A stretch of 25,216 nt of DNA from Chloroflexota bacterium (lineage in GTDB: Bacteria > Chloroflexota > Anaerolineae > UBA7937 > B3-Chlor). The stretch covers positions 1 through 25,216 of the forward strand of contig JAUWYD010000001.1 of assembly GCA_030616025.1 (NCBI GenBank). Reading direction: 5' to 3'. The notes below the pieces were generated by a model. That model had not been told where the DNA came from, ran no database searches, and saw only the letters and a list, made by a program, of their open reading frames with translations. Shown piece by piece: positions 744 through 4,474 of the stretch (within the stretch, counting starts at the first letter, position 1; each line of letters begins with the position of its first letter). The translations under genes and the position numbers were made by a program.

Positions 744-2102
744 CTAGCCTCCTCCGATGAAGGCCATCTCTTGTACAATGCTGAGAATGGGGTCCACCAG
801 CAGTCCAGGAGCCAGCCCTAGGAGCAAGCATAGCGCGGCCAACGACAGGGTCATGACCGTTACCAGCAGGGGTTCCCGTACCGCTTTCAATTGCGGCGAA
901 GGCTGAAGCATCAGGGACAACGATCTCACATATCCCAAAACCACACCGGCCCCAGCCAGTAGCAGGGCCCCCTGGTACAGAGGACTGTCTCCAGGGAGGG
1001 ACCGATACACAAGCCAGCGGGTGGCGAAGCCATTGAATAGGGGGAAACCACCCAGGGCGAGACCACCCACGATGTAGCCGACGATGCTCCCTGGCGTCCT
1101 CCTTAGGGCCTCTCGCAATGTGGAAACAGAGCCGTCGTTGAGGTATGTGCGTAGCGTTCCCAGACTCATAGCTAGCAGCAGCACCAGCAGAGAGCGGTTG
1201 ACGATGTGGGCCAGAGCGCCGGTAGTGCTCGTCAGAGAGCCCGTTCCTAACCCTACCAAGACGAAGCCCATGTCGCTGATAGCAGCGTAGGCCATCAGGC
1301 GTCCTGGGTCCCGTTGGGCGAAGGCGAACACCCCGCCCACGAGCGCTGTCAATAGGCCGGATATCGAGATCACTAACAGCATTGGTGAGCCTGTGGTCAA
1401 CCAGAGATGGCTGTTGAGCACACCCAGGAGAAGGACCAGGACTACCGGGTTGAAGATACAGATGAGCGAAGCACTCGCCGCGAAGGGGGCCCCAGCGGCT
1501 ACTGCGGGTAACCAGGAGTGAAAGGGTGCCGCTGCCAGTAGGATGCCGAACCCCACGGATAGGGCGATGACTGTGAAACGAATCAGAAGGAGGTTGTCGG
1601 GATGCAGAGCGTAGCTCTCTGCCAGCCAGGATACCACGAGCAGGCACGGGATGGCCATTACGAGGGGGACTACGTATCCGATGGCGGTCCCCACCGGGGC
1701 GGGACGTCTTCCGTGGATCATGAACACAAAGACGAGTGCTGCCATCTCCAATAGCAGGACGGATATGAGGAAGGTGCGGATCATGATCGCTCCACTGAGG
1801 AGGCCCAGGATGGCCAAGAGAGAAGGTATGAACGCCCAGCCTTGAGGTATCTGCCACGCATACAGGATCATGAGACTGGCCAGGCTCAAGAGGAAGATCA
1901 GTATGAAGCCGCTGAGCTCGTCCAGCATGAGCTCACGTCCCAAGATGTATGCTGGTTCGCCCAGGGGCGCCTGACTGCAAATCCCTATCAGCGTCAACGT
2001 CGTCGCCAGTGAGACGAAAACGGCTGCAGTCCAGTAGCGCCTGAGGAAGTAGACCGGTACTGCCATTGTCAAAGGGACGAAGATCAGGAGAATGAGGATC
2101 AT
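744..2102 (-). CDS. Antiporter-like (Proton_antipo_M fold) membrane subunit, MrpD/NuoN/HyfF-like, with degenerate charged residues
   Basis: 452 aa, highly hydrophobic. Family motifs APFHSWLP, RLMAYAAISDMGF and GFPLFNGFATR are present. ATGA overlap with the upstream gene. Confidence 0.8.
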   Translation of the reverse strand: MILILLIFVPLTMAVPVYFLRRYWTAAVFVSLATTLTLIGICSQAPLGEPAYILGRELMLDELSGFILIFLLSLASLMILYAWQIPQGWAFIPSLLAILGLLSGAIMIRTFLISVLLLEMAALVFVFMIHGRRPAPVGTAIGYVVPLVMAIPCLLVVSWLAESYALHPDNLLLIRFTVIALSVGFGILLAAAPFHSWLPAVAAGAPFAASASLICIFNPVVLVLLLGVLNSHLWLTTGSPMLLVISISGLLTALVGGVFAFAQRDPGRLMAYAAISDMGFVLVGLGTGSLTSTTGALAHIVNRSLLVLLLAMSLGTLRTYLNDGSVSTLREALRRTPGSIVGYIVGGLALGGFPLFNGFATRWLVYRSLPGDSPLYQGALLLAGAGVVLGYVRSLSLMLQPSPQLKAVREPLLVTVMTLSLAALCLLLGLAPGLLVDPILSIVQEMAFIGGG

Positions 2103-2770
2103 CTTCTGTCTTCCTCGACAATGACGGTCAGCTGAGCCGTAGTCAGGTAGCTTATGGCCAAAGCCATGAGGATATTGACGACGCCTAGTAGTGCGGCCAC
2201 GCTCAAGCTCTTCTCAAGAGTGGCGAAGAGAACTTCGAAGCCCGCCTGGAAGGTAAGGAGACCCAGGCCAACCTTGAAGGGATCTCTACTCAGGACGACA
2301 GTAAGCAGACCTATCCCCACCAACCAGTAGCAGGCCTGGGAGATGCCGAGTGGGTGGTCAACGAAGGGGTGTCTGGTGCCCAGGGCGTAGCTCACCACTG
2401 CCGCCAGGAGGACCAAGAGGAGGCGAAACCACAGGTTCATCGGAAAGATATCCAACACGGTGCTGACGGGGCCTTGTTCATGGTGGGCCCCCTTGATTGT
2501 GGGTTCTCTTCCCCAATGCACGCGCCGCGCTGTGAGGTAGAAGATCACACAAATCATAGCTCCTACGATCACTTTGACCAGCGCCACTCGCAAGGGTATC
2601 ACCCTAGCGAGAAGTAAGCTCACAAGGACATATTGAGCGAGCAAGGCCCAGAGACTGAGCCTCCAGTCCTCAAGGACGATGATGACAGTAGCCGTGATGA
2701 GGAATCCCAGCATGAGCTCAAGGTATGAAAGGGAAGACAGGCTAACGAAAATGTCCTGCAGTACGTCCAT
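2099..2770 (-). CDS. HyfE-like membrane protein (about 7 TM; C-terminal half NuoK/MrpC-like)
   Basis: 223 aa with about 7 hydrophobic segments. Contains LLAQY, a Lys in TM3 (ALVKVIVG) and SRDPFKVGLGLLTFQAG, resembling the HyfE/NuoK pattern. SD-like GAGGGGT upstream. Lies between two antiporter-like genes. Confidence 0.6.
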   Translation of the reverse strand: MDVLQDIFVSLSSLSYLELMLGFLITATVIIVLEDWRLSLWALLAQYVLVSLLLARVIPLRVALVKVIVGAMICVIFYLTARRVHWGREPTIKGAHHEQGPVSTVLDIFPMNLWFRLLLVLLAAVVSYALGTRHPFVDHPLGISQACYWLVGIGLLTVVLSRDPFKVGLGLLTFQAGFEVLFATLEKSLSVAALLGVVNILMALAISYLTTAQLTVIVEEDRR

Positions 2771-2779
2771 TCTTACCCC

Positions 2780-4474
2780 TCAGCTACTCAGGAGTAGAAG
2801 TGTGACCAAGGTAGCGAACAGCAGAATCCAGCCCAACGAGTGTCTCCCCTCGAAGAACCCTCCCAACTGTTCCAAGATTGTGGCTGTCCGTTGCGCTGTC
2901 CAGTCCAGGGCGCGATATAGCCATCCCATTTCGGCGATCATCTGGAGTGTCTCCAGGGAGACACCTGCTTTGGTCACGATGGTTTCCCCCTTGCGGTACA
3001 TCAGGTATCCCAGTAGGAGCGACAGCAGTGTGCCGGCAAGAAGAACCAGAGAAAAGGATGGCTCTTGCGAGTAGATCAGGTCTGGTAGGGCTGGCAGGGT
3101 GGAGAGCCCACCAGGCGGCCCTACCATGCGCCCTATCAATGGAGGATGCAGGCCCAGGATCAGCAGAAGGATAGCCAAGCCGCTCATGCTCGCCAGCAGC
3201 AGAGGCCTTATCGCGCCCTGGTCTGTACCTGGAGAAGTAGGTTCCAGAAACATCTTCGATAGGGGTGCCAGAAGAAAGCTGTTGCTTAGCAGACTTAGAA
3301 GGATGAGGGGGCCAAGGCCTAGGTCCCACAGGGACTCGTAGAGGAGCCAGCGGCTTGCGAACCCTACTGTGAGAGGGGTACCCACTAGTGCGGCAACGGC
3401 CGCAAGTGTGCAGCTTCGCGCCCAGAGGCCATAGGGATGTGGCATAGGGTCACGGGAAGTCATATGGCCTAGAAAGAGGAGACTCAGAGCCAGGGTCAGG
3501 CTGATGACCTGCGACGATATAATGGCCGCGGAATGTGGTGCGGAGATGGCGCTCGCGAGGGTCAGATAGCCCACCTGGTTGAGAACTATGTAGGAGGCAG
3601 ATCTCCTCAGACTCGACTCAAACCAGAGAGGAAATGGACTCAGGACAAGAGCCAAGCTTCCCAAGAACAGGGCCGCTTCCTTCCCTGGCAGAGTTGCCAC
3701 AGACGCCAAGGTTAGCATCCGAGCCAGCAAATACCCACCCGCGCTCAAGGGAGTGACGTACCATACGATTAGGGTAGGGAGACTCATCTCCACGTCGACG
3801 GGCAGGGCAACGAACGCCGGATACAGCCCCACGCGCATCAGGGCGGCCAGCATGGCAAGGGAGATGACCTTCGTCGGGAGAGGCGTTGCCTGGAGAGACA
3901 GGGACGCGCCTCGCGCTTCGAGCAGGAGCAGTGCGGCCAAGAACAGGGCCAGTCCAGCGAGGTAGTTGATGAGCAGCAACCTGACCCCCATTCGAGAGGC
4001 TGCCTTTCCGCGGTGCAGGAGGGCAGTGAGGAACAGCAGCGCCAGGTCAAGGAAGCCCCAGCTGAAGCAAAGGGTGACCAGGTCGGCTGAGAGGATGAGG
4101 CTGACTCCCCCGGCGGCCAGCAGAAAGATGGCGCCGTAAGGATGACCACGCTCATCCTCTGGGATGAGGAAAGCACGCTGCGAGATGATCGCTACCAGCG
4201 TTATGAGGCCTATCAGCGACACGAAGAGAAGTGACAAGTTGTCCATATAGTAGCCGAGCTGCACACCGAAGAGGGGCGCAGGGCGCCAGACGGAGAAGTT
4301 AATGCTGTTTGGCTGATAGCGGTAGAGGAGTAGGGAGAAGAGAAGGCAACTGCCTGCCAGGATGGCGGCCAAGACGTTGGTAATCTGGACGCGGGCTGTC
4401 CTCTTCGTCAGCGGCAGCAGGACCGCTCCCAGAAGGAGGATGATCACGAGCAAGAGGGGTGTTGCGAGGGGCAT
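2780..4474 (-). CDS. Antiporter-like membrane subunit, NuoL/MrpA/HyfB-like, with C-terminal lateral-helix region and degenerate charged residues
   Basis: 564 aa from ATG 4474 (SD AGGAG upstream; the track start at 4495 is probably too far upstream). Motifs DNLSLLF, SADLVTLCFSW, GYLLAR, NQVGYL and GTPLTVGFASR are present, followed by an amphipathic C-terminal stretch and a final TM. Confidence 0.8.
   Translation of the reverse strand: MPLATPLLLVIILLLGAVLLPLTKRTARVQITNVLAAILAGSCLLFSLLLYRYQPNSINFSVWRPAPLFGVQLGYYMDNLSLLFVSLIGLITLVAIISQRAFLIPEDERGHPYGAIFLLAAGGVSLILSADLVTLCFSWGFLDLALLFLTALLHRGKAASRMGVRLLLINYLAGLALFLAALLLLEARGASLSLQATPLPTKVISLAMLAALMRVGLYPAFVALPVDVEMSLPTLIVWYVTPLSAGGYLLARMLTLASVATLPGKEAALFLGSLALVLSPFPLWFESSLRRSASYIVLNQVGYLTLASAISAPHSAAIISSQVISLTLALSLLFLGHMTSRDPMPHPYGLWARSCTLAAVAALVGTPLTVGFASRWLLYESLWDLGLGPLILLSLLSNSFLLAPLSKMFLEPTSPGTDQGAIRPLLLASMSGLAILLLILGLHPPLIGRMVGPPGGLSTLPALPDLIYSQEPSFSLVLLAGTLLSLLLGYLMYRKGETIVTKAGVSLETLQMIAEMGWLYRALDWTAQRTATILEQLGGFFEGRHSLGWILLFATLVTLLLLSS

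Follow-up and report, generated by a model that had tools for sequence, protein, structure and literature searches.

Whether a membrane-protein fold that has shed its proton-pumping residues is decaying or has been given another task is the question raised by one locus (744-4474) in the first 25,216 nucleotides of contig JAUWYD010000001.1 (GCA_030616025.1) from a Chloroflexota bacterium, the whole stretch that we analysed and refer to as the window. In NuoL/M/N and MrpA/D, the Glu of transmembrane helix (TM) 5, the Lys of TM7, TM8 and TM12 and the His of TM11 are needed for energy-coupled translocation. An initial annotation, made from the sequence alone, had described two antiporter-like proteins of 452 and 564 residues in which most of this charged axis was gone; both open reading frames and every motif string quoted for them were present as described. 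The annotation had taken no account of a small third subunit gene at 2099-2770 or of the conservation of charge as Arg. Our alignments show every canonical relay Lys and most of the His to be replaced, with the replacements fixed across the Chloroflexota, and the locus is very probably an operon of three genes, complete in itself, that encodes a small membrane complex descended from Mrp or from the membrane arm of complex I. The window belongs to a metagenome-assembled genome (G000) that is 68.7% complete, and absences within it are soft.

The three membrane-protein genes are packed on the minus strand in the order f2-f3-f1, downstream of genes for TlyA and a GNAT acetyltransferase:

2780-4474, minus strand: f2 (P0002), a MrpA/NuoL-like antiporter-like subunit of 564 residues, starting at ATG 4474
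2099-2770, minus strand: f3 (P0003), a membrane subunit of 223 residues without a Pfam or NCBIfam family
744-2102, minus strand: f1 (P0001), a MrpD/NuoN-like antiporter-like subunit of 452 residues, PF00361

The f3 start lies 9 nt past the f2 stop, f3 and f1 overlap by ATGA, and the whole module comprises about 1,240 residues. An alternative start of f2 at TTG 4495 would give 2780-4495 and 571 residues; ATG 4474 is the likely start, with a putative GGAGAG ribosome-binding site 5-6 nt upstream. The residue numbers of f2 given here follow the 571-residue frame, from which 7 is subtracted for the 564-residue protein.

We fixed the residue register of f1 from several sources. The protein passes the PF00361 (Proton_antipo_M) model with 62.6 bits against a gathering cut-off of 21.5; its best NCBIfam model is MrpD, at a score far under every NCBIfam equivalog cut-off. 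HMMER aligned it to MbhH (6cfw_H), HycC (7z0s_C) and Mycobacterium smegmatis NuoN (8e9g_N). The AlphaFold2 model of f1 (predicted local distance difference test, pLDDT, 93; predicted template-modelling score, pTM, 0.93) reaches TM-scores of 0.78-0.85 to NuoM/N, MrpD, MbhH and HycC, and its helices break at 189-196 (TM7) and 351-356 (TM12), where the helices of the family are discontinuous, in agreement with the 14-TM core of the PF00361 fold. Reference residues of Escherichia coli K-12 were confirmed by number in NuoN (E133, K158, K217, H224, K247, K395), NuoM (E144, K234, H241, K265, H322, H348, E407) and NuoL (E144, K229, H254, H334, H338, K342, K399), and a MAFFT alignment combined about 80 homologues each of f1 and f2 with E. 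coli NuoL/M/N and the canonical NuoL and NuoM of the same genome. For f1, the HMMER alignments to solved chains, the MAFFT alignment and the superposed AlphaFold2 model agree with one another and, checked against E. coli NuoL/M/N and MrpD, with the register that the annotation had read by eye. The positions in f1 are as follows, those without codon coordinates being placed by alignment:

1746-1748, minus strand: E119, the TM5 Glu, kept
G142 of the query at the TM6 Lys position
1539-1541, minus strand: L188 at the TM7 Lys position (NuoN K217, NuoM K234, NuoL K229)
1518-1520, minus strand: H195, the TM7 His of HxW, kept
N218/P219 at the TM8 Lys position
1272-1274, minus strand: D277 at the TM10 His/Gln position
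1206-1208, minus strand: H299 in TM11, at the position of NuoL H334
1194-1196, minus strand: R303 in TM11, at the position of NuoM H348 and NuoL H338
V307 in TM11, at the position of NuoL K342
1017-1019, minus strand: R362 at the TM12 Lys/Glu position (NuoN K395, NuoM E407, NuoL K399)
1935-1937, minus strand: R56
924-926, minus strand: R393

The substitutions that had been proposed for f1 (L188, N218/P219, D277, R303 and R362, with E119 kept) were thus confirmed by alignment. For TM11 the annotation had read NRSLLV in place of NHxxxK, which was borne out for R303 and V307; the helix has not lost every such residue, as H299 aligns with H334 of NuoL.

The second antiporter-like protein, f2, passes PF00361 with 34.7 bits against the same cut-off; MrpA and NuoL are its best NCBIfam models, again far under every equivalog cut-off, and its best solved match by HMMER is Dietzia MrpA (7d3u_A, E 1.6e-8). 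Its register comes from sequence alignment (HMMER, MAFFT):

4055-4057, minus strand: G147 at the TM5 Glu position
4046-4048, minus strand: D150, an Asp three residues past the TM5 Glu column
3980-3982, minus strand: R172 at the TM6 Lys position
3833-3835, minus strand: R221 at the TM7 Lys position
F228 at the TM7 His position (alignment)
Y246/S251 at the TM8 His/Lys positions (alignment)
3575-3577, minus strand: Q307, the TM10 Gln, kept
Q329, L333 and L337 at the TM11 positions (alignment)
3350-3352, minus strand: R382 at the TM12 Lys position
2849-2851, minus strand: E549

The glycine in TM5 with an Asp three residues on, R221, the lost TM7 His, the absence of His and Lys from TM11 and R382 all stood as first read, and D150 probably stands in for the TM5 Glu. 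In both proteins, the description of a lost charged axis holds for the titratable Lys and His and fails for the charges themselves, which are largely kept as Arg or Asp. The f2 protein has an N-terminal extension, and the hydropathy of its C-terminus indicates TM segments at 478-501 and, terminally, at 551-571 with about 50 amphipathic residues between them, which would fit a short lateral helix of the NuoL/MrpA type, long enough for one neighbour, followed by an anchor helix.

The replacements are a property of the family. An exhaustive HMMER search with f1 across 1.84 billion cluster representatives returned 94 proteins at E <= 1e-30; generic PF00361 relatives scored far lower against f1 (best solved chain, 67 bits), and in a word-index search the scores fell from 165 bits directly to 84 or less beyond the family. 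Counts over related genomes, here and below, are not independent. Among 80 close homologues of f1, E119 is found in 76, L188 in 75, D277 in 77, and R303 and R362 in all 80; 80 homologues of f2 hold R221 (79), D150 (78), R382 (78) and R172 (73), with Gly, Ala or Ser in the TM5 Glu column. The pattern extends to a wide set of 116 full-length f1 representatives, mutually no more than 50% identical and reaching down to 26% identity to f1, in which R303 occurs 98 times, R362 97 times, Asp or Glu at 277 99 times and an Arg at the TM6 position 91 times, with almost no Lys at axis positions. At positions 56/119/142/188/195/277/303/362/393 the consensus of this set reads R-E-R-L-H-D-R-R-R, where the canonical pattern is x-E-K-K-H-H/Q-H-K/E-x. 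The TM7 position is Leu or Trp in the wide set, the TM8 position is N, S, Q, P, G or A and never Lys across the family, and the position of H299 is His or Gln only.

With one genome taken per species, an independent set of 75 Chloroflexota loci was obtained, for which the locus search used 24 closer sequences. Here f1 holds R56 in 74, R303 in 72, R362 in 70 (otherwise His), L188 in 69, D277 in 67, H195 in 64 and E119 in 49 loci. The helix-breaking P193, P354 and G279 of f1 are invariant, and H195 and W197 are conserved. In f2, R221 (54/57), D150 (53/57) and E549 (52/57) are better kept than R382 (39/57); the TM5 Glu column is Gly, Ala or Val, and TM8 has Y/H/Q at 246 and S/A at 251. The conserved residues of f3 are R37 and R116 (each 68/68), E186 (64/68), E179 (54/68) and Y208. 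The alignments therefore show in f1 a change of Lys to Arg in most members at TM6, Lys to Leu or Trp at TM7, loss of Lys at TM8, Asp or Glu at TM10, His to Arg at TM11 and Lys to Arg at TM12; in f2 the TM5 Glu is moved by one turn (D150), the TM7 Lys is Arg, His and Lys of TM8 and TM11 are lost, and the TM12 Lys is Arg in the clade of the query. These are common to the homologues and not sporadic. A hint of coupling between D277 and R303 was seen in the wide set, where position 277 is neither Asp nor Glu in 8 of the 18 representatives without R303 and in 9 of the 98 with it, the sequences not being phylogenetically independent. Covariation between subunits (f1 119 and 362 against f3 179 and 186 and f2 150 and 221) offered too few variants.

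The organism itself provides a comparison, as a second contig of the same genome (C321; L002, L003) carries canonical NuoK-NuoL-NuoM genes (NuoK at C321:3720-4010) with normal Glu, Lys and His. The Arg pattern is therefore specific to the operon and no lineage-wide drift, and the organism has an ordinary complex I membrane arm besides the divergent trio. We estimated the ratio of nonsynonymous to synonymous substitution rates (dN/dS, Nei-Gojobori) between the window and a genome of the same genus (G096; amino-acid identity 91-94%, dS 0.12-0.14) and obtained 0.30 for f2, 0.34 for f3 and 0.24 for f1, compared to 0.18 for the flanking GNAT gene and 0.27 for TlyA. More distant comparisons gave 0.15-0.31, at synonymous sites that are saturated. 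Family-wide fixation, these ratios and the invariant helix-breaking Pro and Gly support the proposal of the annotation that the fold has been repurposed under selection.

The small subunit f3 is an obligatory third member, always linked to f1. About 119 homologues were found, without a name or labelled 'MnhB-related'. Its AlphaFold2 model (pLDDT 85.9) consists of two helical halves with a disordered loop between them. For the N-terminal half (about residues 10-90), the top 16 rows of a VIA-align search were all NuoJ/ND6, MbhD, MbsD or the MrpA C-terminal domain, with 70-115 residues aligned at a root-mean-square deviation of 2.0-4.4 A and Z of 8.6-10.1, values under the caution level of the tool for helical bundles. 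The uniformity of these matches and the genomic context make it likely that this half of the modelled protein is of the NuoJ/ND6/MbhD/MrpA-C-terminal type. Other approaches returned little: Foldseek found nothing at E <= 0.001 for the f3 model against the PDB, the f3 family profile matched no PDB sequence even at E 10, the Pfam MbhD model gave weak matches in 2 of 59 family members (best E 0.0076), and hhalign of the f3 family against E. coli NuoK and NuoJ was not significant (probability 0.2% and 0.07%). The C-terminal half may be NuoK-like. Its language-model features in the Atlas (residues 105-223) match at 0.88, with 196 shared, clusters that are partly PF00420 (NuoK/MrpC), which is a lead only; in five genomes the PF00420 model found the canonical NuoK and not f3.

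Natural fusions join f3 to f1 and speak for a single complex. The 637-residue P0519 of Anaerolineaceae bacterium 4572_78 carries f3 over 15-182 and f1 over 228-575; the positions of D277 and R303 appear changed in this protein (NIGSN, FVQQ). The AFDB record A0A1W9W7M7 is also among the f3/f1 fusions, and an f3-like domain forms the C-terminus (residues 359-547) of a 554-residue protein, AFDB A0A497B2T5. Eight proteins of 1,250-1,330 residues that had looked like fusions (P0425, P0433, P0437, P0443, P0447, P0472, P0477 and P0509) were rejected as members of the trio; PF00361 matches each of them strongly over two or three stretches (up to 417 bits), which identifies them as canonical-type antiporter-like subunits fused in one chain.

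We predicted the complex of f1 and f3. The pair scored 0.69 in ipSAE (interaction prediction score from aligned errors), compared to 0.00 for the best control; among solved complexes 58 of 80 attain this mark and among mismatched pairs 2 of 110, counts that are rough as custom alignments were used. The runs share at least 91% of contacts and the partner pLDDT is at least 69. In the predicted interface, TM5/TM6 of f1 (112-159, with E119) lies against the last helices of f3 (158-216, with E186), so that f3 residues 185-186 and 198 come to stand beside E119. In solved structures, NuoN and MrpD contact NuoK and MrpC with the corresponding face. The C-terminal helices of f3 would accordingly occupy the place of NuoK/MrpC in the model, next to a NuoJ/MbhD-like N-terminal half, and we infer a subunit order of f3-f1-f2.

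Which known system does the trio belong to? The likeness to Mrp (Mnh/Pha/Sha, CPA3) lies in the combination of A-type and D-type antiporter-like subunits (NCBIfam MrpA and MrpD, with 7d3u_A the best match of f2), in the likely resemblance of the N-terminal half of the f3 model to the MrpA C-terminal domain (7d3u_A 599-706; 7qru_A 628-703; Z 9.5-10), in the probable short lateral helix and anchor of f2 and in the absence of an attached redox module. In contrast, the trio has three genes where Mrp has six or seven, its operon holds no MrpE/F/G, and other residues stand in place of the relay Lys and His. MnhG, which marks a true Mrp, occurs in 41 of 201 sampled Anaerolineae genomes; at least 9-10 genomes hold both a real Mrp and the module, so the trio is not simply the local Mrp. 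We considered whether the module replaces Mrp and rejected this, since the two are not exclusive (MnhG was found in 9 of the 78 genomes with the module and in 32 of the 123 without it, related genomes not being independent). PF03334 (MnhG) was not found in G000 or in its relatives from the same genus and the same family (G096, G134); the MrpE and MrpF families were not searched.

The membrane arm of complex I (NuoL/M/N, NuoJ and NuoK; MbhH/D/E/G of MBH; MBS) shares the fold of f1 with its broken TM7 and TM12, probably the NuoJ/ND6/MbhD type of the N-terminal half of f3 and, in the prediction, a contact beside the TM5 Glu that resembles NuoK on NuoN. Unlike that arm, the trio operon is without NuoH, NuoA and Q-module genes, lacks the pumping axis residues and coexists with the separate canonical NuoK-L-M cluster of the genome. 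For a PF00361 protein at work in a small complex of its own, the closest precedent is DAB (DabB with DabA), the best-studied case outside complex I and Mrp (10.1101/476713; 10.64898/2026.05.01.722082). DabB is described as proton-translocating and needs the soluble carbonic-anhydrase-like DabA, whereas the trio has two antiporter-like subunits and no soluble partner; PF10070 (DabA) was not found in five module-bearing genomes (two at least 96% complete) or among the neighbour families. As its residues depart from those that define proton-translocating subunits, and its operon from those that define Mrp, complex I and DAB, the trio would, on its sequences, be a member of none of them. No description of the f2-f3-f1 clade was found in the full-text literature, a scope that leaves most subscription journals outside.

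The origin of the two larger subunits was approached with a maximum-likelihood tree (LG+C20), in which long stems lead to f1 and to f2, each of them monophyletic (100/100). A single clade of f1 and f2 has a support of 42, and a grouping of f2 with NuoL/MrpA is not rejected (p-value of the approximately unbiased test, p-AU, 0.57), the branches being long. The architecture favours separate descent from a MrpA/MrpD-like pair, given the N-terminal extension, C-terminal helix and anchor and A/L-type best matches of f2 and the D/N-type best matches of f1, although it is not decisive alone. Separate descent would make the Lys-to-Arg changes parallel; a sister relation of f1 and f2 would mean one ancestral change followed by duplication. 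The annotation had spoken of parallel changes: the TM12 Lys to Arg change is indeed present in both proteins, but the tree cannot separate parallel changes from a single ancestral one.

The nearest named record of the family is Chloroflexi bacterium B3_Chlor (94% identity), and the named relatives are all Chloroflexota (Anaerolineae, Caldilineae, Ardenticatenaceae, Chloroflexia and Ca. Aquidulcis). At E <= 1e-30, f1 is present, always in single copy, in at least 78 of the 201 Anaerolineae genomes and in 51 of 152 high-quality genomes, figures that err on the low side, as the trio of G119 fell just outside the threshold; it is also present in 20 genomes of other classes, many of them closed, in a sample of 301 genomes of the phylum. 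Complete Chloroflexota genomes thus carry the module, for example ten one-contig genomes of one genus. The order f2-f3-f1 is kept in 57 of the 75 species loci, and f3 directly precedes f1 wherever upstream DNA exists; an adjacent f2 is missing at L059, L075 and L105 in the genome search and at the metagenome loci L009 and L010. Near-identical DNA to window positions 744-4532 (61-78% of sampled words) occurs in marine-sediment, subsurface, sediment and seawater metagenome runs of nine studies, suggesting a widespread sediment lineage; no RNA run was found among the public runs with near-identical DNA.

The surroundings of the operon in the window are the following:

5017-5895, minus strand: TlyA gene, flanking the trio
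4550-5005, minus strand: GNAT acetyltransferase gene, separated from f2 by a 75-nt gap
4504-4532, minus strand: sigma-70-like promoter-like site, TTGACA-17-TAAAAT (11/12), a consensus match only
709-737, minus strand: second promoter-like site, near-consensus with an extended -10, past the f1 stop and before P0004
2-697, minus strand: P0004, the gene after the operon, for a Cys-rich tetratricopeptide repeat (TPR) protein (TPR PF14559, E 0.0024)

With promoter-like sites at both of its ends, the trio looks like a transcription unit of its own. The Cys-rich segment of P0004 weakly matches an SPP1 gp7/MuF-type domain (TIGR01641, E 0.03); the equivalent position in L007, a relative at 65% identity, holds genes of 252 and 232 residues, which is not so in distant clades. 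The flanking genes are wholly different between clades. A Pfam tally over 74 neighbour open reading frames of 23 clade representatives yielded no recurrent partner family, the commonest being GT4 glycosyltransferases (6/74). Neither a NuoH/MbhM-type subunit nor a Q-module was found in or beside the operon in the window and the 23 clade-representative loci, except for the metagenome contig L013, where NuoB/C/D/I-like genes (2401-5556, minus strand) lie divergently beside the module (6356-10081), a single case among about 30 contexts. At L009 (9293-18667) and L010 the module stands beside an Arn-like set comprising GT2, a DegT aminotransferase, a methyltransferase, LPG_synthase_TM and a 972-residue PMT_2 protein; at L011 (10151-14233) the neighbours are genes for the start of the mevalonate pathway (HMG-CoA reductase, an HMGCS-like gene, thiolase and DUF35), and UbiA pairs occur beside some other loci. 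The theme of envelope and isoprenoid neighbours is weak.

What could such a complex do? Every functional statement on the trio made here is inferred from sequences and models. The explanation that we prefer, at a probability of about 0.45, is that the Mrp/complex-I-derived trio moves ions by its carboxylates. Arginine has a very high pKa. It is unlikely as a proton carrier: the proton-carrying Lys of the electrogenic NhaA/NapA is Arg in the electroneutral NHA2, which still transports via Asp (PMC8850199). These CPA Na+/H+ exchangers, with a buried Lys (NhaA/NapA) or Arg (NHA2/NHE) and transport via a carboxylate, would offer a parallel to the D277-R303 and D150-R221 pairs, but their fold and family are unrelated to the trio and the analogy is mechanistic only. 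On this reasoning the trio could have no lysine-based lateral proton relay of the NuoL/M/N and MrpA/D type, since arginine cannot shuttle protons. It would still be expected to move ions, as the discontinuous TM7 and TM12 and the invariant Pro and Gly are kept. The sole titratable or ion-binding sites would be E179 and E186 of f3, E119 and D277 of f1 and D150 of f2, with the arginines as permanent counter-charges. D277 (TM10) and R303 (TM11), by homology adjacent on the axis in the stretch from the lost TM8 Lys to R362, would probably be paired as ions; across the subunit interface, D150 and R221 of f2 would lie opposite R362 of f1, and E119 would face E179 and E186 of f3. Such a complex would be a cation/proton exchanger or a cation pathway driven by a gradient and not a multi-proton pump. 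That the carboxylates do the work in this cation or proton pathway, with arginines as fixed counter-charges, is proposed by analogy and is tentative. It is doubtful that the trio constitutes a previously undescribed class of Mrp-derived machine in the Chloroflexota in which the Lys/His relay has been rebuilt from arginine-carboxylate pairs.

Several points weigh against ion movement by carboxylates. The proximity of D277, R303 and R362 is assumed by homology. A subclade that accounts for 16 of the 75 species loci (e.g. L047-L054) has Trp at position 119 of f1 and keeps R142, D277, R303 and R362 of f1 and the glutamates of f3, so that even the TM5 carboxylate is dispensable there. A polar path is not evident in the centre of f2 (S/A, Q, L, L), and the TM12 Arg of this subunit varies in distant clades, for which reasons f2 may be only an anchor. 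The NuoK-like identity of the C-terminal half of f3 is weakly supported, with PF00420 missing it, hhalign at 0.2% and the Atlas match a lead. The score of the f1-f3 prediction may reflect memory of the solved NuoN-NuoK and MrpD-MrpC complexes, and since such complexes are already solved it shows likeness and does not prove binding.

A rival explanation is a complex that no longer moves anything and has been retained as a scaffold in the membrane, as a factor for assembly or stability or as a sensor. Among exchanges that abolish titratability, Lys to Arg disturbs charge and structure least; it would keep the buried electrostatics, and it is found at every interface position (R362 of f1, and R221 with D150 of f2). 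The Leu or Trp in place of the TM7 Lys of f1 could be a hydrophobic plug, in line with the apolar centre of f2, the dispensable E119 and the variable R382. A structural role, however, has no obvious need of an invariant P193, P354 and G279, a conserved H195 and W197 and a new D277-R303 pair; no scaffold partner is conserved nearby, and the operon is single-copy and autonomous, under purifying selection like that of its housekeeping neighbours. We regard this explanation as rather unlikely. A new substrate is an improbable solution, in which arginine-lined cavities would bind and transport anions or the anionic head groups of lipids, such as phosphate, sulfate, bicarbonate or a polyprenyl-phosphate-linked intermediate. 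The conserved arginines are many (R56, the equivalent of R142, R303, R362 and R393 in f1; R168, R172, R221 and R382 in f2; R37 and R116 in f3), and some loci stand beside the envelope and isoprenoid genes described above (Arn-like GT2/DegT/PMT_2, mevalonate, UbiA pairs, GT4). But the neighbourhoods vary by clade and glycosyltransferases are abundant everywhere; most of the arginines stand just where a canonical Lys would be, which fits a conservation of charge better than a new anion site. The central Arg residues all have an acidic partner that is itself conserved (D277; D150), and we know of no precedent for a PF00361 fold moving anions or lipids. The annotation had suggested non-proton or anion transport or a structural role; anion transport and a structural role are no better supported than cation transport via the surviving carboxylates.

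The trio might instead dock in trans on the canonical complex I of the cell, or on a different complex with a NuoH subunit, and serve there as a distal module of an alternative or regulatory kind, a proposal that we consider more improbable still. Its material is at hand, with the canonical NuoK/L/M of contig C321, the module beside NuoB/C/D/I-like genes at L013 and NuoH-like genes in 181 of the 201 Anaerolineae genomes, including nearly all module carriers. NuoH is so common, however, that co-occurrence tells little, and our comparison for a dependence on NuoH was uninformative for this reason; one 93% complete genome (G176) has the module and no PF00146 match. Adjacency to Nuo genes was seen once among the contexts, and f3 is predicted to sit on the very face of f1 that would contact NuoK/J, so that the module caps itself. 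Decay of a Mrp or Nuo operon into pseudogenes is hardly credible. The weak Pfam scores and the loss of catalytic residues are what a relic would show, and in two species genomes an in-frame stop lies inside the f1 match (G053:C51:1455-2804 and G068:C54:8166-9482; TAA and TAG), which may be pseudogenes or assembly errors. The frames of the window are nevertheless intact, gene order and translational coupling are conserved and new invariant residues (D277, R303) have been gained. The same substitutions recur over hundreds of sequences down to about 26% identity; this fixation, together with dN/dS of 0.24-0.34, led us to exclude decay.

The way in which the Lys/Glu/His axis conducts protons in NuoL/M/N and MrpA/D remains a matter of debate, and mutagenesis samples single sites. 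The trio is a natural test, in which the relay lysines are all Arg or hydrophobic and an Asp-Arg pair has been added, while the fold, the broken helices and three subunits are kept under selection over a deep divergence; with only three genes and its small size, expression and cryo-electron microscopy are realistic. Databases label some of the trio genes hypothetical; the other labels ('proton-conducting transporter membrane subunit', 'MnhD', 'NuoN' or 'hydrogenase-4 component') inflate the respiratory or antiporter capacity inferred for Anaerolineae genomes from sediments. If the complex transports ions, the lysines are not essential to the transport function of the fold; if it does not, the trio marks those conserved features that are purely architectural. 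A true arginine-carboxylate rebuild may amount to a new principle for the fold, be it carboxylate-only cation exchange, movement of anions or lipid phosphates or a field-sensing device; alternatively, the trio may be a natural all-Lys-to-Arg variant that separates the structural from the catalytic parts of the axis.

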